Shown: positions 12,496-32,923, counted from the first letter of the stretch. The stretch is DNA of 40,000 bases from Prolixibacteraceae bacterium (GCA_963666435.2 CAXXOG010000008.1:51286-91285), one strand, 5' to 3'. Program-made: numbers and translations. The notes: a model not told the origin generated them from the letters alone.

Positions 12496-12501
12496 TCAGC
12501 G

Positions 12502-15057: not shown

Positions 15058-15263
15058 GGTTACTATATTTTATTATGATTTATTTCTGCAAAACGCTCGG
15101 TTTCATACTTCTGCCATAAGTTACCACAGTCAATACTTGATTGTCCGCCTTCATTTGTCGTCTTTTTGTCGAGTTTGAGTCCAATCAATTTGACCCCCGG
15201 AATAGTTGTCCTATCCATATTTGCTATTTATTTGTCTGCCTATTTCTGCCCATACAATGCCAC

Positions 15264-15485
15264 AACGGCTACCTCAAGCCCCCAAAACCTTACGTTCGCC
15301 TTTCTCACCCATACGGCTCCGTCACCTTTAAGGCTCACCCGGCAAAGGGTAAATAAAATTCAATAAATCGCTCTACAAATACATACATCCAATCCCGGCG
15401 GGTGCGGTGTATCGAGCTTGCCGGGGTGTAGTTCAACACACACTCATCGCTGGGTCGTGCCGACCGCTCAGAGTCCTATTTATTA
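15264..15485 (-). repeat. junction repeat B1: B-family site module (15485->15350) plus decayed group II intron 3' fragment (15349->15264)
   Basis: Alignable by eye to 16194-16416. The site module begins 14 nt after the HepT stop. The domain V/VI region is mutated here. Confidence 0.75.
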
Positions 15486-15499
15486 TAACCAGTTGTTAT

Positions 15500-15832
15500 T
15501 TAAGCAAGTAGATTATCAATCTCTAATTTCAAGGTAGGCAGATGTCTTACAATCGTTCCCCAGATAATTTCATTGTCAATTTTGTCATAACCATGGATCA
15601 CTCGATTTCGCATACTGATAATTTGTCGTTTACTCGATATCTCAATAGTTGAATCCAATTTCTCAATCCGACTCATTGCTTCTCCTATAATTTCAAACTC
15701 TCGTTCGACCGCTCTTCTCAGCATCTTATCTGCCATATAGACTTTAAAATCACGATTGTCCCCAAGATATTTTAGAATGGAATCTATAGACTCCTGGATG
15801 TCAAACAGATATTTTTTAATCTCATTATCCAT
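15500..15832 (-). CDS. hepT: HepT-like (DUF86/HEPN) toxin
   Basis: Contains the HEPN R-x4-H-x-Y motif as RNRVIHGYD. It overlaps the upstream MNT gene by 8 nt. Confidence 0.85.
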   Translation of the reverse strand: MDNEIKKYLFDIQESIDSILKYLGDNRDFKVYMADKMLRRAVEREFEIIGEAMSRIEKLDSTIEISSKRQIISMRNRVIHGYDKIDNEIIWGTIVRHLPTLKLEIDNLLA

Positions 15833-16127
15833 ATAGCAAGGTTTTTGTTTGGTTAACGGAATTAATAAAATATGGATTAGACAAAGATTTGTCCGTAACT
15901 AAGTCAACGGGTCGTTGAAACAGATCCTCAAATTTATCAGCTAAATCAAAATATGTGTCCGCATAATCTCCGTAGTCCATAGGTTTAAAGGAGATTAGTA
16001 AATCAATATCACTTTTGTCGTTAAATCTGTCGGTGCAGACCGAGCCAAAAACAAATAACGACGCTACATTATGTGTCATGCATAATGATCTGATTCTTTC
16101 AATATTATCGGTTATTAGTCTTTGCAT
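15825..16127 (-). CDS. mntA: MNT-type nucleotidyltransferase antitoxin
   Basis: Contains the minimal nucleotidyltransferase motif FVFGSVCTDRFNDKSDIDLLISF (GS...DxD). Confidence 0.85.
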   Translation of the reverse strand: MQRLITDNIERIRSLCMTHNVASLFVFGSVCTDRFNDKSDIDLLISFKPMDYGDYADTYFDLADKFEDLFQRPVDLVTDKSLSNPYFINSVNQTKTLLYG

Positions 16128-16193
16128 ATCAATGTTTTGTACAAATCTATCATTAATGTTGAAATCTTACAAGTGCCGCAATACAATTGGTGC

Positions 16194-16416
16194 ACCGGGT
16201 AGCTTACGCCCCCTAAGAACCGTACGTGCGACTTTCACCGCATACGGCTCAGGCCCTTTTAAGGCTCACCCGGCGGAGGGTAAATAAAATTCAATAAATC
16301 GCTCTACAAATACATACATCCAATCCCGGCGGGTGCGGTGTATCGAGCTTGCCGGGATGTAGTTCAACTCACACTCATCGCTGGGTCGTGCCAACCGCTC
16401 AGAGTCCTATTTATTA
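16194..16416 (-). repeat. junction repeat B2: B-family site module (16416->16281) plus 87-nt group II intron 3' fragment (16280->16194)
   Basis: The fragment carries an intact domain V (GAGCCGTATGCGGTGAAAGTCGCACGTACGGTTC) and domain VI, identical to the 3' end of the full-length introns. Confidence 0.85.
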
Positions 16417-16448
16417 GGTGTTGTAGTACTTTTATCTCGAAAACAATT

Positions 16449-17633: not shown

Positions 17634-17703
17634 TTTAGAGGTTTTTAGTTTGTGGAGACTATGATTAATTAGCTGTGCAAATATTTATCGGAACTATAAC
17701 ACC

Positions 17704-17970
17704 ACCGGGTAGCTTACGCCCCCTAAGAACCGTACGTGCGACTTTCACCGCACACGGCTCAGGCACTTTTAAGGCTTGCCCGGCTGTTGTTACTTCAAAA
17801 ACTCAAAATCGGTCGCTAACTGCACACTTCGACAAGCTCTGTAACTACTTCGACAAGCTCTGTAACCTTAGCCCCGAATCCGGCGGGTGCGGTGTATCGA
17901 GCTTGCCGAGGTGTAGTTCAACACACACTCATCGCTGGGTCGTGCCGACCGCTCAGAGTCCTATTTATTA
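17704..17970 (-). repeat. junction repeat B3: B-family site module (17970->17796, with 2 x 21-bp internal tandem repeat) plus 92-nt intron 3' fragment (17795->17704)
   Basis: The fragment matches the full-length intron from the last codons of the RT ORF (GTAACAACAGCCGGG) through domains V-VI. The tandem units acttcgacaagctctgtaac lie at 17826-17867. Confidence 0.85.
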
Positions 17971-17984
17971 GCGCCTGTTGTCTA

Positions 17985-18554
17985 TTATGTCTCAATGGTA
18001 AAACGTTTATATTTAGAAACTATTCTTGTCGTTGTCCAACCGCTAATTGTATATAATTTTCTGATTGAAGTTACTTTTATGATCTCATTCCCTTCCAATG
18101 AAATTGATTCAATTCCTAATAACTTGTTTGTTGAATTCTGATAAAAACCTGATAACAGATTAATTGATTTGTAATTCTCATCAAATTGACACATAGCTGC
18201 GTTGGCATAGTTGGCATAGTTAATCGTATAACTCGGATGATAGCTGGTCGAATCAAATATTTCACCTTTGGGTACACTGATATATTCAACTGGCCATTTC
18301 TCCTCAAATAAATTTTTACTGGCTTCAATAACCCGAAGTTCCAATCCCGCGCCTAATATCTCTTTATTTTCACGAAGAAGATTGGTCGAAGGAATACCAT
18401 CCATATTCAAATCTACCGGTTCGGAAGAAATTGAAGAAATCATTTCATATTTACCATGAAATTTTGCCTTTAATAGTTCAATACTCTCGCTTGAATCATT
18501 CTTATTACAACTAAATAGAATAATAGAAATAAAAATTAATAGACTTTGTTTCAT
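17985..18554 (-). CDS. hypothetical lipoprotein
   Basis: MKQSLLIFISIILFSCNKN is a lipobox-type signal. The ORF is open to 18587, but ATG 18554 fits the signal peptide. Confidence 0.65.
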   Translation of the reverse strand: MKQSLLIFISIILFSCNKNDSSESIELLKAKFHGKYEMISSISSEPVDLNMDGIPSTNLLRENKEILGAGLELRVIEASKNLFEEKWPVEYISVPKGEIFDSTSYHPSYTINYANYANAAMCQFDENYKSINLLSGFYQNSTNKLLGIESISLEGNEIIKVTSIRKLYTISGWTTTRIVSKYKRFTIET

Positions 18555-18654
18555 AAACTTCAGTTTCTGTTTTGTGATATAGGACAAAAAATAGTCTTAA
18601 ATATGTCATTTTATAGTATTTGTCTCTTTGTTATTAGCACAATAAATTACCCAC

Positions 18655-18676
18655 AACGTAGGAAGCTACACGCAGG
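18655..18676 (-). repeat. A-family site A1, arm separated from the rest by IS insertion
   Basis: aacgtaggaagctacacgcagg is identical to the equivalent arm of the intact A sites at 25644, 28568 and 31696. Confidence 0.85.
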
Positions 18677-18766
18677 CTGTATGTTTGTAAGTGCGCAATG
18701 CATAAGCCTTCAGTGTTTTTGTAAATTTAGTTTTTGAAAAAGAAACAAAACAAAAAACGAAGACTT

Positions 18767-19843
18767 ATGCTAGCTAAAGGTACGACAATTGATTTTAACG
18801 GGCAAAACGTTTATGCCGGAATTGATATTCATTTAAAGAGTTGGAAGGTAACCATCATGTTGGGAGACCGGGAACATAAAACATTTTCACAAGATCCGAA
18901 TGCAGAAACCCTGTGGAATTACCTGCGGAAGAATTTTCCCGGGGCAGTATATCATTCAGCCTACGAAGCAGGTTTTTGCGGATTCAGCGCCCATCGCGAA
19001 CTTGCGGGTTTTGGGATACACAATCTGGTGGTCAATCCTGCGGATATACCTACCACCGACAAAGAAAAGCGGCAGAAGGAAGACAAACGCGACAGTCGCA
19101 AGATCGCCAAATCGCTCCGTAACGGTGAACTGGTGGGCATCTATGTTCCGGGCAAGGGGATGGAAGAACTGCGTGGTCTGGTTCGTTACCGCAAAACGCT
19201 GGTAAAAGAAATCAGCCGCCATAAGTGCAGGATCAAGTCGTTCATTTATTTTAACGGCATACAAATTCCAATGGAACTGGGCGGCACCTCAACGCATTGG
19301 TCCGGGAGGTTCACCCGGTGGTTAAGCGCAGTTGAATTATCAACGGTACATGGCAAAATGGTACTTGACGACACAGTCGATACGGCAGAACTGCTGCGAA
19401 AAAAACTGTTAAAGGTCAACCGGCATTTGCGTCAGGTTGTCCAGAATGGGGAATATTCACAGCAACTAAGGTTATTGCAGAGCATCCCGGGAATCGGCCT
19501 GATATCGGCCATTACACTTTTGACCGAAATGGAGGATATCCTTCGGTTCAGGAACCTTGACCAACTTTGTTCATTCGTGGGACTGGTACCATCAACCAAC
19601 TCCTCGGGCGAAAAGGAGAATGTTGGTCGTATCACCAGGCGCAACAACCGTTTTCTACGCAGCATTCTTGTAGAGGCAGCCTGGATGGCATCGAGAAAAG
19701 ACCCGTCGCTGTTATATAGCTATGCCTTACTTTGCAAGCGGATGGAACCAACGGAAGCCATCATCCGGATAGCAAAAAAATTACTAAACAGGATAAGATA
19801 TGTAATGAAAAATGAAACAGAATATGTACATTCAGTGCTATAA
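18767..19843 (+). CDS. IS110-family transposase (DEDD N-domain plus Transposase_20-type C-domain)
   Basis: N-terminal VYAGIDIHLKSW and C-terminal LQSIPGIGLISAITLLTEM...FVGLVPSTNSSGEK..GRITRRNNRFLRSILVEAAW are typical of the family. The ORF is open from TTG 18734, but the ATG at 18767 is the likelier start. Confidence 0.9.
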   Translation: MLAKGTTIDFNGQNVYAGIDIHLKSWKVTIMLGDREHKTFSQDPNAETLWNYLRKNFPGAVYHSAYEAGFCGFSAHRELAGFGIHNLVVNPADIPTTDKEKRQKEDKRDSRKIAKSLRNGELVGIYVPGKGMEELRGLVRYRKTLVKEISRHKCRIKSFIYFNGIQIPMELGGTSTHWSGRFTRWLSAVELSTVHGKMVLDDTVDTAELLRKKLLKVNRHLRQVVQNGEYSQQLRLLQSIPGIGLISAITLLTEMEDILRFRNLDQLCSFVGLVPSTNSSGEKENVGRITRRNNRFLRSILVEAAWMASRKDPSLLYSYALLCKRMEPTEAIIRIAKKLLNRIRYVMKNETEYVHSVL

Positions 19844-19899
19844 CATCAAAACTGGTTGTAAAAACTACTCCATGATAAAGAGACTGTTTTCCGCCCCTT

Positions 19900-20140
19900 G
19901 CGGCCCCTGATAGGGTGTCCGTTACACGCAGGCCACAGCTCTTATCTATAATAAATTGAACACAGGAATGCGGCTGGTTGCACCATGTCCGTTGATAGAA
20001 GGGTGTTTTTATAGACCGGTATTTGATACAAAAGAGGGGAACCCGAAGGTGAAGTTTTACACCGAAGGTTTAGAAATTATGCTGGGCTTTTGCCCAGCAT
20101 AATTAAACCAAGAGGGGAAACCCTCAGGCTCTGTATTGCC
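19900..20140 (+). ncRNA. candidate bridge/seek RNA of the IS (3' non-coding region)
   Basis: Four short segments match the insertion chemistry. TACACGCAGG (19923-19932) equals the target left flank plus core. TGCGG (19969-19973) equals the target right flank. ATAGAAGG (19995-20002) equals the IS right end plus core. CTGTAT (20131-20136) equals the IS left end. Two of these follow a repeated GTCCGTT scaffold. The RNA boundaries are not defined. Confidence 0.5.
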
Positions 20141-20233
20141 CAAAGGTTTAGGGATTTAAAAAGTTAACTTACTGAATAGTAGAAAAATAGTTTAAAAATA
20201 AAGAATGAAAAATTTGGATTACAACATAGAAGG

Positions 20234-20356
20234 GGCGGACTGCGGGCGATTTGGCTAACGCCGATTTTCAATTCCTGTCAAGCCGAAATGCAGCCCGGGC
20301 GGAAAGATACACACCGAAAACCAATGCTGCCGACCTTGACGGGTAGCTGATGTTAT
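20234..20356 (-). repeat. A-family site A1, remainder
   Basis: ggcggactgcgggcgatttggctaacgccgattttcaattcctgtcaagccgaaa...gacgggtagctgatgttat is homologous to the intact A sites. Confidence 0.85.
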
Positions 20357-20379
20357 ATGCCGCTCTTATTCTGTCCCAT

Positions 20380-21117: not shown

Positions 21118-21138
21118 AATGTCGTCTTAGAGTGGCAT

Positions 21139-21162
21139 ATAACGTAGGAAGCTACACGCAGG
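21139..21162 (-). repeat. A-family site A2, arm separated by IS insertion
   Basis: ataacgtaggaagctacacgcagg, the same arm as at 18655-18676. Confidence 0.85.
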
Positions 21163-21252
21163 CTGTATGTTTGTAAGTGCGCAATGCATAAGCCTTCAGT
21201 GTTTTTGTAAATTTAGTTTTTGAAAAAGAAACAAAACAAAAAACGAAGACTT

Positions 21253-22329
21253 ATGCTAGCTAAAGGTACGACAATTGATTTTAACGGGCAAAACGTTTAT
21301 GCCGGAATTGATATTCATTTAAAGAGTTGGAAGGTAACCATCATGTTGGGAGACCGGGAACATAAAACATTTTCACAAGATCCGAATGCAGAAACCCTGT
21401 GGAATTACCTGCGGAAGAATTTTCCCGGGGCAGTATATCATTCAGCCTACGAAGCAGGTTTTTGCGGATTCAGCGCCCATCGCGAACTTGCGGGTTTTGG
21501 GATACACAATCTGGTGGTCAATCCTGCGGATATACCTACCACCGACAAAGAAAAGCGGCAGAAGGAAGACAAACGCGACAGTCGCAAGATCGCCAAATCG
21601 CTCCGTAACGGTGAACTGGTGGGCATCTATGTTCCGGGCAAGGGGATGGAAGAACTGCGTGGTCTGGTTCGTTACCGCAAAACGCTGGTAAAAGAAATCA
21701 GCCGCCATAAGTGCAGGATCAAGTCGTTCATTTATTTTAACGGCATACAAATTCCAATGGAACTGGGCGGCACCTCAACGCATTGGTCCGGGAGGTTCAC
21801 CCGGTGGTTAAGCGCAGTTGAATTATCAACGGTACATGGCAAAATGGTACTTGACGACACAGTCGATACGGCAGAACTGCTGCGAAAAAAACTGTTAAAG
21901 GTCAACCGGCATTTGCGTCAGGTTGTCCAGAATGGGGAATATTCACAGCAACTAAGGTTATTGCAGAGCATCCCGGGAATCGGCCTGATATCGGCCATTA
22001 CACTTTTGACCGAAATGGAGGATATCCTTCGGTTCAGGAACCTTGACCAACTTTGTTCATTCGTGGGACTGGTACCATCAACCAACTCCTCGGGCGAAAA
22101 GGAGAATGTTGGTCGTATCACCAGGCGCAACAACCGTTTTCTACGCAGCATTCTTGTAGAGGCAGCCTGGATGGCATCGAGAAAAGACCCGTCGCTGTTA
22201 TATAGCTATGCCTTACTTTGCAAGCGGATGGAACCAACGGAAGCCATCATCCGGATAGCAAAAAAATTACTAAACAGGATAAGATATGTAATGAAAAATG
22301 AAACAGAATATGTACATTCAGTGCTATAA
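21253..22329 (+). CDS. IS110-family transposase (copy 2, identical protein)
   Basis: The ORF-track protein is identical to that of copy 1. Confidence 0.9.
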   Translation: MLAKGTTIDFNGQNVYAGIDIHLKSWKVTIMLGDREHKTFSQDPNAETLWNYLRKNFPGAVYHSAYEAGFCGFSAHRELAGFGIHNLVVNPADIPTTDKEKRQKEDKRDSRKIAKSLRNGELVGIYVPGKGMEELRGLVRYRKTLVKEISRHKCRIKSFIYFNGIQIPMELGGTSTHWSGRFTRWLSAVELSTVHGKMVLDDTVDTAELLRKKLLKVNRHLRQVVQNGEYSQQLRLLQSIPGIGLISAITLLTEMEDILRFRNLDQLCSFVGLVPSTNSSGEKENVGRITRRNNRFLRSILVEAAWMASRKDPSLLYSYALLCKRMEPTEAIIRIAKKLLNRIRYVMKNETEYVHSVL

Positions 22330-22385
22330 CATCAAAACTGGTTGTAAAAACTACTCCATGATAAAGAGACTGTTTTCCGCCCCTT

Positions 22386-22626
22386 GCGGCCCCTGATAGG
22401 GTGTCCGTTACACGCAGGCCACAGCTCTTATCTATAATAAATTGAACACAGGAATGCGGCTGGTTGCACCATGTCCGTTGATAGAAGGGTGTTTTTATAG
22501 ACCGGTATTTGATACAAAAGAGGGGAACCCGAAGGTGAAGTTTTACACCGAAGGTTTAGAAATTATGCTGGGCAAAAGCCCAGCATAATTAAACCAAGAG
22601 GGGAAACCCTCAGGCTCTGTATTGCC
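22386..22626 (+). ncRNA. candidate bridge/seek RNA, copy 2
   Basis: Same sequence as 19900-20140, except that the hairpin loop at 22574-22577 is AAAA instead of TTTT. Confidence 0.45.
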
Positions 22627-22719
22627 CAAAGGTTTAGGGATTTAAAAAGTTAACTTACTGAATAGTAGAAAAATAGTTTAAAAATAAAGAATGAAAAATT
22701 TGGATTACAACATAGAAGG

Positions 22720-22821
22720 TGCGGATCGCGGGCGATTTCCTGTCAAGCCGAAAAGCAGCCCGAGCGGAAAGATGCACACCGAAAACCACTGCTGCCGCGC
22801 TTGACGGGTAGCTGATGTTAT
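22720..22821 (-). repeat. A-family site A2, remainder (carries a 21-bp internal deletion)
   Basis: tgcggatcgcgggcgattt|cctgtcaagccgaaaagc...gacgggtagctgatgttat. The segment ggctaacgccgattttcaatt is missing relative to the other A sites. Confidence 0.8.
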
Positions 22822-23393
22822 GGGCTGCCTTTCGTTTCATTAATACTGTGATTTCTAAAATCTTTCGCGATCACATAGTTGTCACCGACCAAAATAAGTT
22901 TATAATTGTTTGGTTTTAATACACTCTCAAACGACTTTGTCAAAACCCCGTGTTTGTCGCAAACTGCAACAATCTTTTGATTAATTGTAAGTGGAGCCTC
23001 TGATAATTTTCCACTTCCATCCTTCACATTTCCTAAGAATTTGTCAAAAGTGAAATTGATATTCTTGTCGGTTAAATAATTAGTCCAACGTCTCCAACCT
23101 TCGGTAATTTCTTCAATTGCATCCTTTAAGTCGTCAATAAATCTGTCAAAATGGTCTGGTTTCGAGTTTATGTAAGTTGTCACAATAATTTCGTTATAGC
23201 CAATTAATAAAGGATGTTTTTCAAAATAATGGAATTGTCCAATGACACCTTTCTTTAAACTAAATTCCTTTTTGCCAATGAAGTCGAACCGAAATAATTG
23301 CTCGTCAATCTTCAGCGTCAAAAATGTCGCTTGGTAGTTGTCCACTTGAACTGTTTTATTTTGAATATCGTCCAATATCATTTGTGCTGTCAA
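22818..23393 (-). CDS. hypothetical protein
   Basis: 191-aa ORF. Its TAA stop lies inside the ATAAC core of site A2. Confidence 0.6.
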   Translation of the reverse strand: MTAQMILDDIQNKTVQVDNYQATFLTLKIDEQLFRFDFIGKKEFSLKKGVIGQFHYFEKHPLLIGYNEIIVTTYINSKPDHFDRFIDDLKDAIEEITEGWRRWTNYLTDKNINFTFDKFLGNVKDGSGKLSEAPLTINQKIVAVCDKHGVLTKSFESVLKPNNYKLILVGDNYVIAKDFRNHSINETKGSP

Positions 23394-23407
23394 TTAAGGT
23401 TGCCGCA

Positions 23408-25643
23408 ACCGGGTAGCTTACGCCCCCTAAGAACCGTACGTGCGACTTTCACCGCATACGGCTCAGGCACTTTTAAGGCTCACCCGGCGGAGGGCAACCC
23501 GGCTGTTGTTACTTTTTTATTGGACATAAACATAGTAATTTGTTTGCATTCTTTTGCTAAATTAGCTCTCCATTTTGTTCTGTTACTGAAGTATTCATCA
23601 AATTCGGGCAGAAAAGGATTGGCTTCGGCCTTCAGTTTTACATGATACCGAATGGGAACATATCCAATACGGTACAGTCGATGATTCTCTGTTCCGTTTT
23701 TGGTGATCCGCTGATCAGTAAAATGGTTGTCGTGAAAGTAACGATGGTATATCCACCAGCGATTTTTGTTTCCATGCTGGTATTTAGCCCATCGCCTGAG
23801 CTGCCACCAGATGAATGTTGCCAAACGGATGAAAATACGTTTTGAGCAGATGCCTTTGTGGTAGTTCGACCATCCCCTGATTACAGGGTTCAGTATCCGT
23901 ATCAGAGCATGTGCGGGTATTCCACGGTTTTCGTTGATGATCGTTTTCACCTTGTCTCTAAACGATTGGACTGATTCTTTCGATGGACGAATAACCAGTT
24001 TGCCTTTAAATTTACGGACATTCTGTGAAAGGAAGTTAAACCCATCGCTGATATGCGTGATTCTGGATTTTTCGGCAGAGAGTTCTAACCCTCTTTCCAT
24101 CAGGAAGTCGTTTACCAAAGGGATAATCTCTTCGGTAATGACTTCTTTGCTGATGGCCGTGATCACAAAATCGTCGGCATAACGGATGAAGTTCACTTTC
24201 TTGTTTTTCCATCGGGGAAACTTTTTATTGATGGCCGTTTCCAGTCCGTCCAAAACCATGTTCATGATTACCGGTGATATGGTTCCTCCCTGTGGCGTAC
24301 CTTTATCTGTGCGGAACAAACGTTTTTTCTCGATGTAACCGGCTTTTAACCATTGATTAAGAATGGTCTTGTTGACGGGAATATTTTCCAATATCCAGTC
24401 GTGCCGGATGTTATCGAAACAAGATTTGATGTCCGCCTCGAATATCCATTGGGACGAGATTTTTCGGCAGAGCAATTGGAAACAGGCGGCAATGGCATCG
24501 TTGCACGAACGACGAGGTCTGAACCCGTAAGAGTTCTTGTCGGCCAACGATTCGGCCATTGGTTCGAGGGCTATCTTATGCAATGTTTGCATAGCCCTGT
24601 CGCTCATGACCGGAATACTTAACGGACGCTTTTTCCCGTTTTTCTTTGGGATGTAAAGTCGGCGCAATGGTTTCGATCTGTACCCTCTGGATTGGAGTTT
24701 TCGGGCTGCTTCGAGTTTTTCTTCCCCGTTTGTCCAAACGGTGTTGTCAACCCCGGGAGTTGCGCCTCCTTTGTTGGTTGAGACCCTTAGTACAGCCAGT
24801 AATTTAGCGTAGAATGATTTGGTAACAAGGTGCATCAGGGCTTTTGCTTTCGCCCAACGACCTTGTTTTACAGCCTTGGCAATGCGGCGTTGCAGCCTGG
24901 TCACATGTTGGATAACCTTCCGCCATAAAATGGTTTGCCAGTTATTCAATTGGTGTGGGAGCGCACACGATAAACTTTCATCCTCGTTCATTTGCTTTCT
25001 TCCATTTGCAGGTTCTGTAAAACTTTATGCCATAAAGCACCAGATGAAGGTAGGCAGGCTTTCGCCCGTGGTGATGTTGTAAACAAACTCAACCACTATC
25101 CAACCCGTTACAGGAAGGCATTCGCTTTGTTCATCGTCTCTGTCCGGCGTTTCCCGATGCCTCGCGGTTACGGTTTTATCCCGAAAATAATGGGAGAGAG
25201 CGCCGGGCTTACACGTTCCGAATAAATAATCAATTGTGTGGGTTTAGGCCCATCCTGTCTGCCGGCTGATCTACATCCTTGTAGGCACTGCGTTAAACGT
25301 ACCTAACCTGTCAGCTCACCATTTTGGTACAAAGCGTATCATTCTCTTTTTCGCTCCTACTCGCCTGTCGGCAGTAACGGATTGTTCACTATATGTTAGC
25401 CATGCCCACTGATCCAAGCCCTTAATTGACTTTGAGACTTCAAAGACTGTCTGCCTCACGGTTTCCAGCCCCGCCATTGGCTGCACGAGCCCGGCAATTG
25501 GTACTGTTTCCCGGGGGCTTCACCCGGTAATGGCTGCACCATACACCAGGTGCCCCGGTAGGATACTGCTGAAGGAACAGCAGGTTTTGTCAATCAGTTG
25601 TAACTGACTGCAAAACAATTGCTTAATACGACTTCGTGTCGCA
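23408..25643 (-). mobile_element. group II intron, full length, copy 1 (2236 nt; boundaries +/- 2 nt)
   Basis: Domain V lies at 23464->23431 (GAGCCGTATGCGGTGAAAGTCGCACGTACGGTTC). Domain VI (GGGGGC-GUAA-GCUACCC) has a bulged A at 23414, 7 nt from the 3' end. An RT/maturase ORF sits in domain IV, preceded by a ~650-nt 5' ribozyme region. The intron lies exactly between site A3 and the next cassette. Confidence 0.9.
23480..24991 (-). CDS. group II intron reverse transcriptase/maturase (no HNH endonuclease domain)
   Basis: RT motifs RLYIPKKNGKKRPLSIPVMSDRAMQ and FIRYADDFVI (YADD), plus the maturase/X domain RGWSNYH. Length is 503 aa. Confidence 0.95.
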   Translation of the reverse strand: MNEDESLSCALPHQLNNWQTILWRKVIQHVTRLQRRIAKAVKQGRWAKAKALMHLVTKSFYAKLLAVLRVSTNKGGATPGVDNTVWTNGEEKLEAARKLQSRGYRSKPLRRLYIPKKNGKKRPLSIPVMSDRAMQTLHKIALEPMAESLADKNSYGFRPRRSCNDAIAACFQLLCRKISSQWIFEADIKSCFDNIRHDWILENIPVNKTILNQWLKAGYIEKKRLFRTDKGTPQGGTISPVIMNMVLDGLETAINKKFPRWKNKKVNFIRYADDFVITAISKEVITEEIIPLVNDFLMERGLELSAEKSRITHISDGFNFLSQNVRKFKGKLVIRPSKESVQSFRDKVKTIINENRGIPAHALIRILNPVIRGWSNYHKGICSKRIFIRLATFIWWQLRRWAKYQHGNKNRWWIYHRYFHDNHFTDQRITKNGTENHRLYRIGYVPIRYHVKLKAEANPFLPEFDEYFSNRTKWRANLAKECKQITMFMSNKKVTTAGLPSAG

Positions 25644-25790
25644 ATAACGTAGGAAGCTACACGCAGGTGCGGATTGCGGGCGATTTGGCTAACGCCGATT
25701 TTCAATTCCTGTCAAGCCGAAAAGCCGACCGAGCGGAAAGATGCACACCGAAAACCACCGAACCCGCACTTGACGGGTAGCTGATGTTAT
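25644..25790 (-). repeat. A-family attC-like site A3 (intact)
   Basis: Imperfect inverted arms: TAACGTAGGAAGCTACACGCAGGTGCGG ... CCGCACTTGACGGGTAGCTGATGTTA. It starts ~20 nt after the stop of the 25811-26359 ORF. Confidence 0.85.
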
Positions 25791-25810
25791 GGTGCGTTTT
25801 CCTTTGTCTG

Positions 25811-26359: not shown

Positions 26360-26374
26360 TCTTTTAAATGCGCC

Positions 26375-26640
26375 AACCGGGTAGCTTATGCCCCCTAAAG
26401 AACCTTACATTCAACTTTCACCTCACACGGCTCAGGCACCTTTAAGGCTCACCCGGTTGTTATTACTTCAAAAACCATAAAACGGTCGCTAAGTGCATAC
26501 TTCGACAAGCTCTGTAACTACTTCGACAAGCTCTGTAAACACTTCGACAAGCTCTGTAATCTTAGCCCCGATCCCGGCGGGTGCGGTTCAACCGGGAATA
26601 ATCGCTGGGTCGTGCCGACCGCTCAGAGTCCTATTTATTA
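26375..26640 (-). repeat. junction repeat B4: B-family site module (26640->26469, 3 x 21-bp internal tandem repeat) plus decayed 94-nt intron 3' fragment (26468->26375)
   Basis: Homologous to B3. The tandem units lie at 26499-26561. Domain V carries several substitutions. Confidence 0.8.
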
Positions 26641-26651
26641 GCACCAGTTTT

Positions 26652-27356
26652 CTATGTGTCAGTTGTAATATCGTCCCAATTTTCGTCATAATATGTTACC
26701 CAATTTATTGCGTAATGTCTTTCTTCTACAATACTCTCATCTATTCTAAGTTTCTCTAACTTATCCAAATCAGCTTGTCTTGTCGCCCAATGTAATCTAT
26801 AAGTCAAGTCAGAGATGTCAAGTATTTCCGAAACTGTCCGAAGAGTCGCCTTTTCCACAAATTCATTCGTATCTGCCATGAAATCTGGAACGAGGCTTAA
26901 TAATTTTGATATTTCAACTTGTTCAATTGGCAATTCTAACTTTTCAACTTTGTTAATTGCCCAAAGTAGAATCCAAATGGCTTCTGATCGCCACGAAATA
27001 TTTATCTTGTCTTGGTCCGTAAGTTCGTTTTTGAAAAGTTCAATTTCAGCATTTGAAATACTGTTCCAGAGTCCTTGTTGTTTTAGAAAATCAACTACAT
27101 TTTCCTTGTCATCTGGTTCTTCCGCAATATAATTCAGATAAATTAAAACCAATATTCTCTTTGCTATTTCTTGAGGTGTCCTAATTCTTGCGTCACTTTC
27201 TTCTTCAATTGCAGGCAAATGGTCAATAAACGGAATAGCTAAAGACTTTAAATATTTCTCAGTCTGTGCTTTTCTTTCTTTAGCAGTCTTTTGCTCTGAT
27301 TGCTTGCCTCTTTTATAAATGTCAAATAGTCCCATTCTTAATATTGTTGTGTCCAC
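26652..27356 (-). CDS. hypothetical protein (possibly DUF4272-like; from memory, unverified)
   Basis: 234-aa ORF. The start is GTG 27356 or ATG 27335. The cassette is bracketed by a 13/14 inverted repeat. Confidence 0.6.
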   Translation of the reverse strand: MDTTILRMGLFDIYKRGKQSEQKTAKERKAQTEKYLKSLAIPFIDHLPAIEEESDARIRTPQEIAKRILVLIYLNYIAEEPDDKENVVDFLKQQGLWNSISNAEIELFKNELTDQDKINISWRSEAIWILLWAINKVEKLELPIEQVEISKLLSLVPDFMADTNEFVEKATLRTVSEILDISDLTYRLHWATRQADLDKLEKLRIDESIVEERHYAINWVTYYDENWDDITTDT

Positions 27357-27372
27357 TTAAAATTGGTGCTAA

Positions 27373-27497
27373 CGTTGAGGGTATGCAGCGTGCGGGAGTT
27401 CGTGGCCACTTCCTTATCCACCGTTACTGCCCTTGCCAGCGAGCCCTGAGCTTGCAAATGGCTCTGAAACCCGCATGTTGTATACCCTGTGTTGAAC
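27373..27497 (-). repeat. C-family attC-like site
   Basis: Imperfect inverted arms: (A)ACGTTGAGGGTATGCAGCGTGCGGG ... CCCGCATGTTGTATACCCTGTGTTGAAC. It shares the AACGT..GCAG.GTGCGG layout with family A. Confidence 0.75.
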
Positions 27498-27559
27498 TAA
27501 ATCCGCCTTCGCGGATAGCTTTTTAAAACTACCCGATTCTTCCTATTCTAAGGAATTAA

Positions 27560-27832
27560 TCACAACAAAAATTTCTGAATATGAGAAAGAAATCGGGTTT
27601 TAATATTGTTGAGCAGGCCATTGTGCTTGTTCCTGAGTTTGAAAAAGTTGTCCGCAAGTTGGCGTACATGGGAAAGGTATGCCCAATTGCCAGCGAAAAT
27701 GACTAAAAACAGGTGGCCAAACACGATTTTACCAGTGCTGTGAAACCATAAAAGCACTAAAACCTGCAATACGTCAAAAAACGTTATCTCATTAATTTCC
27801 TTCAAAAACTCAAAATCGGTCGCAAAGTGCAT
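27560..27832 (-). CDS. doubtful small ORF in a ~310-bp cassette (may be ORF-less)
   Basis: 90-aa ORF whose first 8 codons lie inside repeat B5. No motif recognised. Confidence 0.2.
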   Translation of the reverse strand: MHFATDFEFLKEINEITFFDVLQVLVLLWFHSTGKIVFGHLFLVIFAGNWAYLSHVRQLADNFFKLRNKHNGLLNNIKTRFLSHIQKFLL

Positions 27833-27909
27833 AGCTCCGATCCCGGCGGGTGTAGTTCAACACAGACTCATCGCTAGGCGTTGCACGCCACTCAGAGTCC
27901 TATTTATTA
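27809..27909 (-). repeat. junction repeat B5: B-family site module without any intron fragment (uninvaded form)
   Basis: Homologous to the site-module part of B3 and B4. It lacks domains V-VI and carries a compensated hairpin variant at 27877-27889. Confidence 0.8.
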
Positions 27910-27926
27910 GCAACCGTATCTTATTA

Positions 27927-28556
27927 TCATTTCTCAAGTTGTTGTCTGATTAAAGCATAAACTAATCCAAGCGTTAGAACAATAAGAAATATTAGCCAGC
28001 CATAGCCGCTGTATTTATTATTCTTGTTTGCAGTATATGCGTTAGTCGCATTTTTTGTCTTAATATTTCTCCTAACTCTTTGAAGTTCTCCATTGAAAAT
28101 ATAATAATCTGAAATTTCAAACGAGTTATACTTTATTTTTTTACCATTCTTTAATTCTATGATAGTCTTGTCTCCACTATATACATTTATGTTTCGACCA
28201 GCATGTGAGGGATTTATTTTAAAATCTCCTTCTGTTACGCTTTTAATTTCAGTCAATGGTATGGCCTTAGTCAAAAATATTAGAGGCCTTTTTATTAAAA
28301 AACTCTTATCTGTCAGAACAAAAGTTTTGACTGTCAGTAGCATTACCAAACAGGCAGAAGCAAAGAAAACAAATGAGCCAAATGTCACGCACATAATTAT
28401 TAAACCAACTGGCCCATCGGTTCCCTTTTCAATTACCCATATTGTTGGCCGTGTCATATAAGTAAACGCGCCAAAGAAAATAGTCCCGAAGAGTCCGAAT
28501 CCGATAGTTTTCACACTCAAAGAAGTTGTCAAAATATTTGTCTCTGTTGTCTCCAT
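27927..28556 (-). CDS. hypothetical membrane protein (2 N-terminal TM, soluble middle domain, C-terminal TM)
   Basis: ATG 28556 (METTETN...) is the first start outside repeat A4. The track ORF extends to 28628 only by reading through the repeat. Confidence 0.6.
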   Translation of the reverse strand: METTETNILTTSLSVKTIGFGLFGTIFFGAFTYMTRPTIWVIEKGTDGPVGLIIMCVTFGSFVFFASACLVMLLTVKTFVLTDKSFLIKRPLIFLTKAIPLTEIKSVTEGDFKINPSHAGRNINVYSGDKTIIELKNGKKIKYNSFEISDYYIFNGELQRVRRNIKTKNATNAYTANKNNKYSGYGWLIFLIVLTLGLVYALIRQQLEK

Positions 28557-28567
28557 AATATGGTTGC

Positions 28568-28713
28568 TAACGTAGGAAGCTACACGCAGGTGCGGTTTGC
28601 GGGCGATTTGGCTAACGCCGATTTTCAATTCCTGTCAAGCTGATAAACAGCCCGAGCGGAAAGATGCACCCCGAAAACCACCAAACCCGCACTTGACGGG
28701 TAGCTGATGTTAC
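28568..28713 (-). repeat. A-family attC-like site A4 (intact)
   Basis: Same architecture as A3, with a few substitutions. It starts ~12 nt after the stop of the TIR-like ORF. Confidence 0.85.
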
Positions 28714-28725
28714 CTGCATGTGCCT

Positions 28726-29385
28726 TTATTCTGTCATTTGTTTTAGGTCATCCAAATCTTTTCTCATTTGGTCTAAGTTATTCTTATTAATCAGTGGACC
28801 AAACTGGGTTGCAATTATTTCAAGTTCAACTTTTCTCGAACGAGCAATTAGTTCAATTAATTTCTTAAAACGGTCATTTGTTAATTCAAATTCGTCTGTT
28901 GCGCTTCCTAATTTTTTAAGATGATTAGTCACTCTAATTCCTAATCTTTGAATTTCGTTTTGAATTAATGTTGTCGGAGCACCTAATGATGCTAAAAGAT
29001 TACCGTCTGAATGCTCTTGAAAAGAGGCAAATGTTATTCCTGCTAGATCAGTAGGGATTTTGATTTGCTTTGAACGGTCAAAGACAATGAATGTTCTGTC
29101 TCGACCGATGCCGCCAACAAAAAGACCAAGCTCAAACAGTACATTGTCTCGAGGTGATTGTGTCGTTTGCTCTTTTGAGGTTGTCATGTCGTCAGGCGTT
29201 AGAGCAAGTATTGCGAAATCATACTTATCCAAAGCAAGAACTAACGATTCTAATGTCCCTTGGCTGAGACCAAATACTCCTTGACTCCAGATTGTCACTT
29301 CGCAACTGTTGTCAAGTAGCACTTGGATTGATTGAGCAACTTTTAGTCCTTCAGTGGAAGAACCAATAAAAATCTTAGGTCTCAT
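28726..29385 (-). CDS. TIR-like nucleotide-binding domain protein (pfam10137 / Cap12-type N-domain) with helical C-terminal domain
   Basis: MRPKIFIGSSTEGLKVA..I...L.....V..WSQGVF......L......YDFAILALTPDD..........PRDNVLFELGLFVGGIGRDR matches the pattern recalled for the TIR-like family. Confidence 0.7.
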   Translation of the reverse strand: MRPKIFIGSSTEGLKVAQSIQVLLDNSCEVTIWSQGVFGLSQGTLESLVLALDKYDFAILALTPDDMTTSKEQTTQSPRDNVLFELGLFVGGIGRDRTFIVFDRSKQIKIPTDLAGITFASFQEHSDGNLLASLGAPTTLIQNEIQRLGIRVTNHLKKLGSATDEFELTNDRFKKLIELIARSRKVELEIIATQFGPLINKNNLDQMRKDLDDLKQMTE

Positions 29386-29459
29386 TTATTCTGCACTTTT
29401 TGTATTATTTATGTGTCAATTTGTAAAACTCACTGTCTGCTGTCCTCTGGCATTGCAGG

Positions 29460-31695
29460 ACCGGGTAGCTTACGCCCCCTAAGAACCGTACGTGCGACTT
29501 TCACCGCATACGGCTCAGGCACTTTTAAGGCTCACCCGGCGGAGGGCAACCCGGCTGTTGTTACTTTTTTATTGGACATAAACATAGTAATTTGTTTGCA
29601 TTCTTTTGCTAAATTAGCTCTCCATTTTGTTCTGTTACTGAAGTATTCATCAAATTCGGGCAGAAAAGGATTGGCTTCGGCCTTCAGTTTTACATGATAC
29701 CGAATGGGAACATATCCAATACGGTACAGTCGATGATTCTCTGTTCCGTTTTTGGTGATCCGCTGATCAGTAAAATGGTTGTCGTGAAAGTAACGATGGT
29801 ATATCCACCAGCGATTTTTGTTTCCATGCTGGTATTTAGCCCATCGCCTGAGCTGCCACCAGATGAATGTTGCCAAACGGATGAAAATACGTTTTGAGCA
29901 GATGCCTTTGTGGTAGTTCGACCATCCCCTGATTACAGGGTTCAGTATCCGTATCAGAGCATGTGCGGGTATTCCACGGTTTTCGTTGATGATCGTTTTC
30001 ACCTTGTCTCTAAACGATTGGACTGATTCTTTCGATGGACGAATAACCAGTTTGCCTTTAAATTTACGGACATTCTGTGAAAGGAAGTTAAACCCATCGC
30101 TGATATGCGTGATTCTGGATTTTTCGGCAGAGAGTTCTAACCCTCTTTCCATCAGGAAGTCGTTTACCAAAGGGATAATCTCTTCGGTAATGACTTCTTT
30201 GCTGATGGCCGTGATCACAAAATCGTCGGCATAACGGATGAAGTTCACTTTCTTGTTTTTCCATCGGGGAAACTTTTTATTGATGGCCGTTTCCAGTCCG
30301 TCCAAAACCATGTTCATGATTACCGGTGATATGGTTCCTCCCTGTGGCGTACCTTTATCTGTGCGGAACAAACGTTTTTTCTCGATGTAACCGGCTTTTA
30401 ACCATTGATTAAGAATGGTCTTGTTGACGGGAATATTTTCCAATATCCAGTCGTGCCGGATGTTATCGAAACAAGATTTGATGTCCGCCTCGAATATCCA
30501 TTGGGACGAGATTTTTCGGCAGAGCAATTGGAAACAGGCGGCAATGGCATCGTTGCACGAACGACGAGGTCTGAACCCGTAAGAGTTCTTGTCGGCCAAC
30601 GATTCGGCCATTGGTTCGAGGGCTATCTTATGCAATGTTTGCATAGCCCTGTCGCTCATGACCGGAATACTTAACGGACGCTTTTTCCCGTTTTTCTTTG
30701 GGATGTAAAGTCGGCGCAATGGTTTCGATCTGTACCCTCTGGATTGGAGTTTTCGGGCTGCTTCGAGTTTTTCTTCCCCGTTTGTCCAAACGGTGTTGTC
30801 AACCCCGGGAGTTGCGCCTCCTTTGTTGGTTGAGACCCTTAGTACAGCCAGTAATTTAGCGTAGAATGATTTGGTAACAAGGTGCATCAGGGCTTTTGCT
30901 TTCGCCCAACGACCTTGTTTTACAGCCTTGGCAATGCGGCGTTGCAGCCTGGTCACATGTTGGATAACCTTCCGCCATAAAATGGTTTGCCAGTTATTCA
31001 ATTGGTGTGGGAGCGCACACGATAAACTTTCATCCTCGTTCATTTGCTTTCTTCCATTTGCAGGTTCTGTAAAACTTTATGCCATAAAGCACCAGATGAA
31101 GGTAGGCAGGCTTTCGCCCGTGGTGATGTTGTAAACAAACTCAACCACTATCCAACCCGTTACAGGAAGGCATTCGCTTTGTTCATCGTCTCTGTCCGGC
31201 GTTTCCCGATGCCTCGCGGTTACGGTTTTATCCCGAAAATAATGGGAGAGAGCGCCGGGCTTACACGTTCCGAATAAATAATCAATTGTGTGGGTTTAGG
31301 CCCATCCTGTCTGCCGGCTGATCTACATCCTTGTAGGCACTGCGTTAAACGTACCTAACCTGTCAGCTCACCATTTTGGTACAAAGCGTATCATTCTCTT
31401 TTTCGCTCCTACTCGCCTGTCGGCAGTAACGGATTGTTCACTATATGTTAGCCATGCCCACTGATCCAAGCCCTTAATTGACTTTGAGACTTCAAAGACT
31501 GTCTGCCTCACGGTTTCCAGCCCCGCCATTGGCTGCACGAGCCCGGCAATTGGTACTGTTTCCCGGGGGCTTCACCCGGTAATGGCTGCACCATACACCA
31601 GGTGCCCCGGTAGGATACTGCTGAAGGAACAGCAGGTTTTGTCAATCAGTTGTAACTGACTGCAAAACAATTGCTTAATACGACTTCGTGTCGCA
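29460..31695 (-). mobile_element. group II intron, full length, copy 2 (identical to copy 1)
   Basis: Offset of +6052 from copy 1. Identity extends through the adjoining A site (29460-31838 equals 23408-25786). Confidence 0.9.
29532..31043 (-). CDS. group II intron reverse transcriptase/maturase (copy 2)
   Basis: Its 503-aa translation is identical to that of 23480-24991. Confidence 0.95.
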   Translation of the reverse strand: MNEDESLSCALPHQLNNWQTILWRKVIQHVTRLQRRIAKAVKQGRWAKAKALMHLVTKSFYAKLLAVLRVSTNKGGATPGVDNTVWTNGEEKLEAARKLQSRGYRSKPLRRLYIPKKNGKKRPLSIPVMSDRAMQTLHKIALEPMAESLADKNSYGFRPRRSCNDAIAACFQLLCRKISSQWIFEADIKSCFDNIRHDWILENIPVNKTILNQWLKAGYIEKKRLFRTDKGTPQGGTISPVIMNMVLDGLETAINKKFPRWKNKKVNFIRYADDFVITAISKEVITEEIIPLVNDFLMERGLELSAEKSRITHISDGFNFLSQNVRKFKGKLVIRPSKESVQSFRDKVKTIINENRGIPAHALIRILNPVIRGWSNYHKGICSKRIFIRLATFIWWQLRRWAKYQHGNKNRWWIYHRYFHDNHFTDQRITKNGTENHRLYRIGYVPIRYHVKLKAEANPFLPEFDEYFSNRTKWRANLAKECKQITMFMSNKKVTTAGLPSAG

Positions 31696-31842
31696 ATAAC
31701 GTAGGAAGCTACACGCAGGTGCGGATTGCGGGCGATTTGGCTAACGCCGATTTTCAATTCCTGTCAAGCCGAAAAGCCGACCGAGCGGAAAGATGCACAC
31801 CGAAAACCACCGAACCCGCACTTGACGGGTAGCTGAAGTTAT
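31696..31842 (-). repeat. A-family attC-like site A5 (intact)
   Basis: Identical to A3 up to the outer core. It starts ~15 nt after the stop of the 31858-32139 ORF. Confidence 0.85.
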
Positions 31843-31857
31843 AGGGCGTTTTTCGTT

Positions 31858-32139
31858 TCATCTGTTTGATAATGATTTCTCTAAAGTTGTCGATAAAAAT
31901 TCGGCAATTTGTATTTGTTCGACAGACATTAGCTGTCTGTTTGAATTAATTGCTTTCTCCATAGCAAACTTAAATTCATACCAGCCATCTGTTAGTCCGT
32001 TTATAAACTTCTTTGCGTCCATAAAATCTAAAACGATTCTGTCTTTGTTTTCCGCGTTCAAAAGGTCGATTAACTTGTCAAAAATCAACCAATAGTCCGA
32101 CCAACCATTGATTTTAAACTTTTCCATTTGCTTCATCAT
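31858..32139 (-). CDS. hypothetical small protein (second gene of a two-gene cassette)
   Basis: 93-aa ORF that overlaps the stop of the upstream DUF4279-like ORF. Confidence 0.55.
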   Translation of the reverse strand: MMKQMEKFKINGWSDYWLIFDKLIDLLNAENKDRIVLDFMDAKKFINGLTDGWYEFKFAMEKAINSNRQLMSVEQIQIAEFLSTTLEKSLSNR

Positions 32140-32557
32140 TAGCAGAATTGAATCTGTAAATATCTATATCTGTCGTTGTTCCTGTCCGATACAGAAATTC
32201 TATTGTTCTCAAGTCGTGTCCTAACGCTGGTGTCGAATTATCTTCGTTAGTGTCAATGTACAAAACAATTTCTAATACCGAGTTCAATTGAAATTGGCTT
32301 TTTAAATCATTGATAATCTCAATTTTGTCGCACAACTTAGACACAATTTCATCCACTAAATTGTCAATTTGTATGTACTCTTTACCTTTGTCTGTGGATA
32401 ATCTCCACATTGCAAACTCAACGGCAGTTTTATAAAATCCTTTATCTCCTTTTCGCCATGAATCTGTCGGTGTTATACCAAGTCTATTTGTCACCTCGTC
32501 TGTGTCAAAACTGTCTCCTTTAAGAGCAAAATAAACATATGAACTACCTGTCTCCAT
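32114..32557 (-). CDS. DUF4279-like protein (family from memory)
   Basis: 147 aa. The N-terminus YVYFALKGDSFDTDEVTNRLGITPTDSWRKGDKG resembles the DUF4279 pattern. Confidence 0.6.
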   Translation of the reverse strand: METGSSYVYFALKGDSFDTDEVTNRLGITPTDSWRKGDKGFYKTAVEFAMWRLSTDKGKEYIQIDNLVDEIVSKLCDKIEIINDLKSQFQLNSVLEIVLYIDTNEDNSTPALGHDLRTIEFLYRTGTTTDIDIYRFNSANDEANGKV

Positions 32558-32577
32558 TAGCGATTTTTAAATGCCCT

Positions 32578-32631
32578 ATAACTAGTAAATAGCGGCAAGT
32601 TTATAGTACTTTTTCTCTTGCCGTTTGTTAC
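32578..32631 (-). repeat. D-family compact attC-like hairpin (54 bp) upstream of the first cassette
   Basis: ATAAC-TAGTAAATAG-CGGCAAG ...loop... CTTGCCG-TTT-GTTAC. It has the same TAAC/GTTA core and asymmetric bulges. Confidence 0.6.
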
Positions 32632-32923
32632 GATAAAAAACAATTGCGCCGGCAATTTCAGAGATCGAGCCCTTATGTCGCCCCGGAATCCGGGTGCGAA
32701 TTTCGCTGGTTTTACACAGCTATGTGAACAGTGTCATGCCCCACAAAGGCAGGTTCAGGATGCCGCTCGTTGTTTTGCTAAAAATAAGGCGTTATGTTCA
32801 AATATCAAAACTATTGTTCACTTATTTTCAATCTTTATTTGCATTAAATTGCTCAGTGCCAAACTATCCGGAATCCAGCTTAACGATTGCTCCGAAAATG
32901 TCGGTATCGCATTGCACAACCCG

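Follow-up and report, generated by a model that had tools for sequence, protein, structure and literature searches.

In integrons of class 1 and of Vibrio, mostly promoterless small open reading frames (ORFs) are each followed by an imperfect palindrome that runs from AAC to GTT, the attC site, in which the crossover falls in GTT, so that the next cassette carries the distal part of R′, which matches the R″ of that same cassette. The R box has 7 bp, and its four variable bp need not match R″ in the array, since they come from the neighbouring cassette (PMC5371416; PMC7439510). The variable part of R′ in an array derives from the next cassette (PMC5371416), and the cleavage position lies within AAC (PMC7439510). 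Here we describe a cassette array from a Prolixibacteraceae bacterium, found in a window of 40,000 nucleotides (nt), this being the whole stretch of DNA that was analysed (GCA_963666435.2 CAXXOG010000008.1:51286-91285). This array runs along the minus strand of the window, starting at 32582 and reaching about 14400, and its cassettes are bracketed by inverted repeats that differ from cassette to cassette. The attC hairpin of each cassette has an outer (R) arm, of which these repeats are very probably the two halves, in an integron-like platform. They follow the known logic of integrons, in a lineage-specific variant distinguished by a longer R arm that covaries and by a wobble that is fixed on the bottom strand.

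The initial annotation had claimed that every cassette carries its own inverted repeat next to a conserved core, and had proposed the scoring of cognate against non-cognate flanks, which the claim withstood. In the window, the 14 nt beyond GTTA and TAAC were compared in register and without gaps for 10 cassettes, the junctions being anchored on the invariant GTTA (or on the intron 3′ end, CCCGGT) and on TAAC/TAAT. The cognate start and end scored 9, 7, 10, 10, 8, 6, 11, 3, 11 and 9 (mean 8.4 of 14, n=10), against a mean of 4.34 (standard deviation 1.73) for the 90 non-cognate pairs and of 4.6 for an across-core control that pairs the end of cassette i with the start of cassette i+1. The cognate sum of 84 compares with 47.5 ± 6.7 for random pairings (z≈5.5), and the true pairing was the maximum of 200,000 permutations, among which 84 was reached once. 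Nine of the 10 two-ended cassettes conform, in that the start after GTTR and the end before YAAC are reverse complements, as in cassette 11, whose arms show 4/6 pairs, then the wobble, then 4/4. Two pairs that had been read as weak or as carrying an indel (28709/29451 and 22817/23398) both fit the common template once a single 1-nt bulge is allowed (29459/28713 and 23407/22821). The terminal cassette (15259 to about 14400), rightly reported to lack a partner, has a start arm and no end arm. The strings quoted at the time lie where they were placed, except AAATGCGCCA, which occupies 26366-26375 and not 26365-26374.

The rule was then found to extend beyond the window. When 20 nt of the type A attC were searched for in species-representative genomes, more than 116 stretches (designated here by L numbers) came up, almost all of them from metagenome-assembled genomes (MAGs) of Prolixibacteraceae and other Bacteroidales, and 125 non-redundant cassettes were taken between consecutive type A sites of these related genomes. 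At positions 2-12 after GTT, cognate pairs had a mean score of 7.22/11 (n=125), as against 4.06 among non-cognate pairs and 4.15 in the across-core control, and scores of at least 9/11 were attained by 46% of the cognate and 0.5% of the non-cognate pairs, so that the cognate-arm rule holds in these 125 cassettes of related Prolixibacteraceae genomes. The match ends at position 12. A common template emerges, in which the start arm shows, after GTT, an R, six variable bases, an A, three or four variable bases and a further A, and the end arm is its complement but for a C opposite the first conserved A. This C/A position is an A·C mismatch on the sense strand, and a T·G wobble on the bottom strand. 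The whole arm is therefore GTT plus 12 nt, made of 6 bp, a semi-paired position 7, a near-fixed A/C at position 8 (A in 116/125 starts, C in 85/125 ends), 3-4 bp and a closing mismatch, position 13 being a conserved A/A mismatch.

The boundary of the mobile unit can be read from the same data. The A or G that stands at position 1 after GTT covaries with the Y of YAAC (0.87 versus 0.68), which places the crossover 5′ of position 1. Related arrays are headed by the gene of a tyrosine recombinase of 577-613 amino acids (aa), hereafter the ~580-aa recombinase, which is co-directional with the cassettes and precedes an attI-like sequence of about 35 nt ending in ...TACTAG|TT (L005, L035, L036, L107, L114 and L119). 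This sequence is conserved among them, and the window retains it at 32583-32620. The first cassettes of these six arrays and of the window lie downstream of attI, not of an attC, and they follow the arm rule too. In one of them, the complete genome of the cultured Aquipluma nitroreducens (AP018694.1, L119), a unit of 843 bp occurs with 100% identity at 11796-12638 and 19473-20315, once directly after attI and once after an internal attC. The identity starts exactly at GTT, the two copies differing in the base before it (A versus C), and stops exactly after the next GTT, as excision and re-insertion with a crossover inside GTT predict. The duplicate indicates a recent movement of the cassette, and hence a system active in the cultured strain. 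Together with the covariation of cognate arms, it shows that cassettes move as units bounded by a crossover in GTT, a placement with the resolution of the triplet itself, G|TT being assumed from integrons. Taken together, the cognate specificity, the arms found after attI and the 843-bp duplicate uphold the earlier proposal that each cassette carries, at its start, the distal half of its own attC's R′ arm, which pairs with R″ once in the circle.

The alternative that survives best, though an improbable one, sees the arms as a historical by-product, left by the joining of a gene to a complete palindromic attC that was later split, without selection for pairing at present. It would agree with the fact that the two arms of a cassette are unable to pair with each other in the array context, and with the four cassettes of the window that retain matching arms without an attC core. 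On the other hand, unselected halves would drift apart, and this is not what the 116 arms aligned from the related genomes show. In bottom-strand hairpins, 83.6% of the cells are paired, versus 65.2% after shuffling of the partners (0/500 shuffles attain the observed value), and a control with slid partners leaves 29-47% paired. The covariation score is 0.493 versus 0.173, and double-sided compensatory changes are seen at 11/15 pairs. The fixed wobble and the fixed closing mismatch have also been maintained, with 77 U·G and 15 U·A pairs at the wobble position to the exclusion of any other type, and the 100% identical cassette copy at attI speaks of recent mobility.

A second alternative, very unlikely in our opinion, is that the repeats act in RNA, where the 5′ and 3′ ends of the cassette transcript would pair for the sake of stability or translational control, for example. 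The ORFs and both arms do lie on the transcribed (minus) strand of the window, and such a stem would bracket each ORF. The near-fixed position 8, however, is a mismatch on the sense strand and a wobble on the complementary one, and the units end at boundaries of DNA mobility. The folds point the same way. When the end arm, the attC core and the cassette's own start arm were joined and folded with DNA parameters, as the initial annotation had suggested for the circularised junction, the bottom strand of the reconstituted sites reached a mean of -30.1 kcal/mol, versus -24.4 kcal/mol in the array context with the start arm of the neighbour, a gain of 5.7 kcal/mol, and it was stabler than the top strand in 95% of 112 sites. 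The sites of the window fold into an outer arm of 14-15 bp, an unpaired 6+3-nt spacer and an inner (L) arm with 6 bp, an A·G mismatch, 2 bp, an extrahelical A, about 9 bp and a variable tip. Of the features of attC sites, these folds show AAC/GTT, the R arm, the 6+3-nt spacer, the L arm and a favoured bottom strand, but an extrahelical pattern unlike the canonical G and T. Two types of attC occur in the window, A (141 nt from AAC to G) and C, both covered by the single conserved core of the initial annotation; half of the cores listed there are not attC, the one that begins with TAATAAATAGG... being the left end of an IS91-family element.

The two remaining alternatives are refuted. That the complementarity merely reflects a shared start and end consensus, or chance, has a real basis, since starts resemble GTTRYNGGCAANNNTA and ends its near-complement, and non-cognate pairs exceed the random expectation (4.06/11 against about 2.75) because of this consensus, but the non-cognate and across-core controls, the permutations of the window and the shuffles dismiss it. 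Likewise, three kinds of mobile element lie at or beside the arms across the array, and yet the repeats are neither terminal inverted repeats of transposon-like cassettes nor footprints of introns or insertion sequences (ISs), as arms occur at the uninterrupted junctions of cassettes 1, 3, 5 and 8 and in the 125 cassettes of other genomes, no target duplications were seen, and the arms vary by cassette where the inserted elements are constant.

The interpretation of the repeats as split R arms leads to the following pathway, which we regard as very probable. Strand exchange occurs inside the invariant GTT/AAC triplet (G|TT by analogy with integrons), so that everything 3′ of the crossover moves along with the next cassette. 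A linear cassette starts with TT plus 12 nt of the R′ arm and ends with the complementary 12 nt plus AAC, and both halves rejoin around the attC core in the excised circle. The bottom strand then forms an arm of 15 bp (AAC/GTT, 6 bp, the semi-paired position, the T·G wobble, 3-4 bp and the closing mismatch), which adjoins the unpaired 6+3-nt spacer and, after it, the L arm with its A·G mismatch and extrahelical A. This long duplex arm is probably the site bound by one monomer of the ~580-aa Xer-like tyrosine recombinase, and through it the circular substrate, once folded, would be kept stable for its insertion at attI. As long as the cassette stays in the array, pairing would be limited to GTTR and the consensus positions.

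Several points weigh against the proposed pathway. Cassette 9 (17971-18656) has two arms, each well formed, that do not match. The initial annotation had rightly listed this cassette as an exception, with a partner offset by about 10 nt, and no partner for either arm was found elsewhere in the window; the cassette may be a fusion or rearrangement adjoining the IS110-family insertion. Four cassettes are without an attC core, so their arms cannot function at present. The window holds no recombinase, no recombination was observed here, and the crossover can be placed no closer than within or next to GTT. Moreover, related cassettes from different genomes are not fully independent observations, and the part that the extra arm length and the wobble would play in recombinase binding is one that we only infer.

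How far the platform departs from classical integrons was judged with the superintegron of Vibrio sp. HDW18, whose integrase is 90% identical to the crystallised VchIntIA and which provided 47 usable cassettes. There the cognate match is 0.79-1.0 at positions 1-6 after GTT, falls to 0.57, 0.51 and 0.38 at positions 7-9 and is at background from position 10. As these matches go beyond the textbook box, extended complementarity already exists in a classical integron, and the contrast drawn in the initial annotation, 9-14 nt instead of 6, was right as to the greater length, which here reaches position 12, but overstated. Both systems share the bottom strand that folds better, the array that begins at an attI-type site and the cognate signal. 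In Prolixibacteraceae, in contrast, the arm extends to position 12 (15 bp in all), where Vibrio shows about 6-9 positions and the literature an R box of 7 bp, the T·G wobble at position 8 is near-fixed and the closing mismatch is fixed, and the L arm shows an A·G mismatch and one extrahelical A instead of the canonical two extrahelical bases. The two systems thus differ by degree in length, and by a new fixed feature, the wobble.

The recombinase differs as well. The ~580-aa protein scores 224-238 bits with the TIGR02249 model, under its cut-off of 265. Its best solved relative is VchIntIA, to which it aligns in two pieces, without 26 plus 16 residues of the IntI-specific insertion, whereas it aligns end to end, over the catalytic and core-binding domains, with XerA/XerC-like structures that have no such insertion. 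It therefore lacks the alpha-I2 around patch III that marks integron integrases, and it carries an N-terminal extension of about 300 aa. More than 400 homologues exist, annotated just as XerD, phage integrase or tyrosine recombinase. Judged by these alignments, the platform is integron-like, but with a predicted recombinase devoid of the domain that defines integron integrases. Its gene, co-oriented with the cassettes, differs in this from that of common integrons and resembles the integrase gene of inverted-integrase integrons, for instance of Treponema, which is co-directional with the cassettes (PMC4889954); theirs, however, encodes an IntI, with the additional domain that the Prolixibacteraceae protein lacks. 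With respect to Xer-type systems (XerC/D and archaeal XerA), a 15-bp duplex arm beside a 6-nt unpaired spacer would resemble their arm-spacer-arm sites, but the substrate here is a folded single strand in a cassette array and not a chromosomal dif site, and the protein has a large N-terminal domain of unknown function.

This type of platform, with an attI-like site followed by cassettes that each end in an attC of about 120-145 nt, is typical of Prolixibacteraceae. In one MAG (L114, L050, L104, L111, L002 and L099; CAXXIM010000001.1, 4.168-4.320 Mb), type A attC matches are spread across some 150 kb on the downstream side of one recombinase gene, which suggests arrays of superintegron size in this family. 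Exact type A matches were also seen in bins of other phyla (L030; L042, a Limnohabitans MAG; L064, a Sphingomonas MAG; L078, Victivallales; L008, Ignavibacteriaceae; L091, Chlorobiaceae), and these are either mis-binned short contigs or a horizontal spread of cassettes. No description of integron-like arrays in Prolixibacteraceae was found in the literature searched, the coverage of which was incomplete and makes this weak evidence of novelty.

Three kinds of mobile element have inserted in the array. Rfam models RF02012 and RF00029 (D1-D4 and domain V/VI) identify two complete group II introns along with additional fragments of domain V/VI, and every one of these hits is on the minus strand. 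Their reverse transcriptase (RT) consists of RVT_N, RVT_1 and GIIM only, without an endonuclease domain (TIGR04416, 356 bits), and its best matches, ltrA genes of Rhizobium and Burkholderia plasmids at about 50% identity, are uninformative for lineage. From their insertion after a hairpin, the introns would be of class C. Published group IIC-attC introns are found between a gene and its attC, where they occupy the bottom strand and run against the cassette genes (PMC3001079). The introns of the window resemble those of the S.ma.I2 lineage in the RT without endonuclease domain and in their place at the edge of the attC hairpin, by the GTT/AAC box. They differ in that both full copies and all the 3′ fragments, as well as a further example in L066 (~5092), sit on the top strand, co-oriented with the ORFs, after the GTTA of R′, which is a mirror-image orientation. 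The complementarity of the arms was said to resume directly after the intron 3′ end (CCCGGT), and it does so at intron and fragment junctions; the insertion point derived from it is next to the cassette boundary, though not on it, as the intron actually follows GTTR and precedes position 2, which puts it 3 nt into the cassette. In cassette 2, for instance, TTA is left at 31697-31699, split off from the rest of the start arm by the intron.

The second kind of element belongs to the IS91 family, and the supposed core TAATAAATAGGACTCTGAG... is its left end. Intact copies encode a Y2 transposase of 391 aa and an Xer-like recombinase of 301 aa, and are inserted between the Y and the AAC of R″, in the layout E-Y|AATAAATAGG...GGATTTAGTTC|AAC-core. 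Those of L002 show the Y2/HUH transposase with a zinc-binding N-terminal domain (NF033538 at 391 bits, PF04986 and PF14319), and the window holds ends only. Its remnant in cassette 3 matches the intact copies of L002 with 78-91% identity in blastn, and L068 as well. As it sits in R″ of the type C attC, cassette 3 owns this site, and the pair 27491-27503 versus 27794-27805 (9/12), taken earlier for a cassette pair, is spurious and falls in the interior of an internally deleted element. A cassette at 27805-27497 was discarded on the same grounds, since this interval includes the first codons of the recombinase gene. Two other candidates were also rejected: type B, the TAATAAATAGG... repeat, as a further family of attC, either with two hairpins or as an attC-only empty cassette with GTTGAAC, because intact IS91-family elements with that end exist in L002, L003, L049, L063, L074 and L111; and TTAGCGACCG... 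as the 5′ end of a mini-intron, because this is IS91 sequence and only the last 80-90 nt are intron.

Four chimeras in the window join the first ~110 nt of this IS to the last 80-90 nt of the intron, with two types of junction, and the attC core is absent from all of them; the cassettes concerned keep matching arms and can no longer recombine. Two of the left-end copies, at 26499-26566 and 17826-17870 on the minus strand, contain a tandem repeat of 21 nt, ACAGAGCTTGTCGAAGTNNTT, in 2-3 copies, which is absent from the intact ISs elsewhere. With its own IntI/Xer-like recombinase of 301 aa, the element (L002 3250-5683, L003, L111, L063, L049, L074 and 27494-27908 of the window) is always found between Y and AAC of R″, a position symmetrical to the crossover of the cassettes, and this recombinase may direct the choice of site.

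The third element is an IS of the IS110 family, present in two identical copies with the DEDD domain and the C-terminal Transposase_20 domain (PF01548 and PF02371; NF033542, 205 bits). Both are inserted at one point of the type A attC, ...CCGCNCCT|IS|CCTGCGTGTAGC, and an identical IS end lies at the matching position in L004 and L019. IS110-family insertion sequences that target attC form the IS1111-attC group, which belongs to the IS1111 clade and is marked by subterminal repeats. With this group the element shares the use of one fixed position inside attC, and this suggests a comparable attC-targeting IS.

The features of the array are collected in Table 1. On one side it is flanked by genes for MutL, rhomboid proteases, a histidine kinase and an aldo-keto reductase, and on the other by those for a CarboxypepD_reg protein and AIM24, an ordinary chromosomal setting. 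Domain searches and tblastn found no tyrosine recombinase gene in the window, save the remnant of 47 residues. The platform of the window is decayed, with the recombinase gene deleted and most of the region upstream of the array lost, two attCs split by IS110-family elements, one with an IS91-family remnant in R″, two with full group II introns after GTTA, and four attC cores replaced by chimeras of IS91 ends and intron 3′ ends; the arms of several cassettes are therefore relics. The cassette ORFs encode a redoxin-domain protein and DUF4272 and DUF4279 proteins, and several have no Pfam match. Among the cargo at 28726-29385 and 15500-16127 (minus strand) are a protein with a TIR effector domain of CAP12/Pycsar type and an MNT/HepT (nucleotidyltransferase/HEPN) toxin-antitoxin pair, a defence and addiction cargo that fits the idea of chromosomal cassette arrays storing such modules.

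Table 1. Coordinates of the arms, attC cores and inserted elements of the array, from its head downwards
Feature	Position	Strand	Remarks
Recombinase gene remnant	32636..32777	-	47 residues, N-terminal ~73-119 only; tblastn of L114 and L107 recombinases
attI-like site, array head	32583..32620	-	AAAAAGTACTATAAACTTGCCGCTATTTACTA, then G at 32582
Cassette 1 start arm	32567..32581	-	TTA TAGGGC A TTT AA; partner 31838-31854
Cassette 1 end arm	31838..31854	-	..AAAC GCCCTA TAAC
Type A attC core, cassette 1	31700..31840	-	AAC...G; repeat family D1; folds as R arm / unpaired spacer / L arm
Group II intron copy 1	29460..31696	-	RT 503 aa; between GTTA and position 2 of cassette 2; ORF sense
Cassette 2 start arm, positions 2-13	29448..29459	-	CCTGCA A TGCC A; partner 28709-28725 with 1-nt bulge
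Cassette 2 end arm	28709..28725	-	GGCA CA TGCAGG TAAC
Type A attC core, cassette 2	28571..28711	-	Repeat family and fold
Cassette 3 start arm	28556..28570	-	TTA GCAACC A TAT TA; partner 27909-27922
Cassette 3 end arm	27909..27922	-	ATAC GGTTGC T; AAC pushed to 27491-27493 by IS remnant
Internally deleted IS91-family element	27494..27908	-	Left end, first codons of Xer-like recombinase gene (+), right end ...GGATTTAGTTC; between Y and AAC of R″
Type C attC core, true attC of cassette 3	27373..27493	-	With IS removed: continuous stem, -35 kcal/mol bottom strand
Cassette 5 start arm	27358..27372	-	TTA GCACCA A TTTT A; partner 26640-26653
Cassette 5 end arm	26640..26653	-	AAAA C TGGTGC T
IS91-left-end/intron chimera	26376..26639	-	Last ~81 nt of intron; attC core deleted
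Cassette 6 start arm, positions 2-13	26364..26375	-	TGGCGC A TTT AA; partner 25786-25802
Cassette 6 end arm	25786..25802	-	AAA C GCACCA TAAC
Type A attC core, cassette 6	25648..25788	-	Repeat family and fold
Group II intron copy 2	23408..25644	-	GTTA| insertion position as copy 1
Cassette 7 start arm, positions 2-13	23396..23407	-	TGCGGC A A CCTT; partner 22817-22833 with 1-nt bulge
Cassette 7 end arm	22817..22833	-	AAGG C A GCCCA TAAC
IS110-family copy 2	21163..22716	+	Transposase 369 aa; in type A attC of cassette 7; repeat D4
Cassette 8 start arm	21128..21142	-	TTA TATGCC A CTCT A; partner 20352-20368
Cassette 8 end arm	20352..20368	-	AGAG C GGCATA TAAC
IS110-family copy 1	18677..20230	+	In type A attC of cassette 8, position as copy 2
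Cassette 9	17971..18656	-	Start arm GTTG TGGGTA A TTTA, end arm ACAA C AGGCGC T: mismatched
IS91-left-end/intron 3′ chimera	17704..17969	-	attC core deleted
Cassette 10 start arm, positions 2-13	17692..17703	-	GGTGTT A TAGT T; partner 16416-16429
Cassette 10 end arm	16416..16429	-	ACTA C AACACC T
IS91-left-end/intron 3′ chimera, second junction type	16194..16415	-	
Cassette 11 start arm, positions 2-13	16182..16193	-	GCACCA A TTGT A; partner 15485-15498
Cassette 11 end arm	15485..15498	-	ACAA C TGGTTA T
Degenerate IS91-left-end/intron 3′ chimera	15260..15484	-	Precedes terminal cassette

A last question concerns the nature of the platform itself. As a tentative proposal, to which we give somewhat less than an even chance, the window would be the decayed copy of a distinct, unrecognised class of integron-like platforms, common in Prolixibacteraceae (Bacteroidota) and with some arrays above 100 kb, whose cassettes would be recombined by the ~580-aa Xer-like recombinase without alpha-I2 and with a novel N-terminal domain of 300 aa. 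The 15-bp R arm with its T·G wobble would then be the means by which this enzyme recognises the folded bottom strand, in place of the contacts of I2 with extrahelical bases. The arms by themselves confirm the cut-and-join logic of integrons in a phylum where integrons have barely been described, and they provide a rule for annotation, since arm matching gives the true boundaries of cassettes, the insertion points of introns and ISs at the level of the base, and the cassettes that have been fused or rearranged. Their context is the more consequential part: an arm twice the length of the textbook R box, a strand-asymmetric wobble, a non-canonical recombinase and a system apparently active in a cultured strain. 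If the proposal is true, the platform would stand between Xer and integron recombination, as their natural intermediate or as a parallel solution, and, if the ~580-aa recombinase does the job, it would offer an experimental handle on how the recombination of single-stranded hairpins evolved from Xer-type enzymes.

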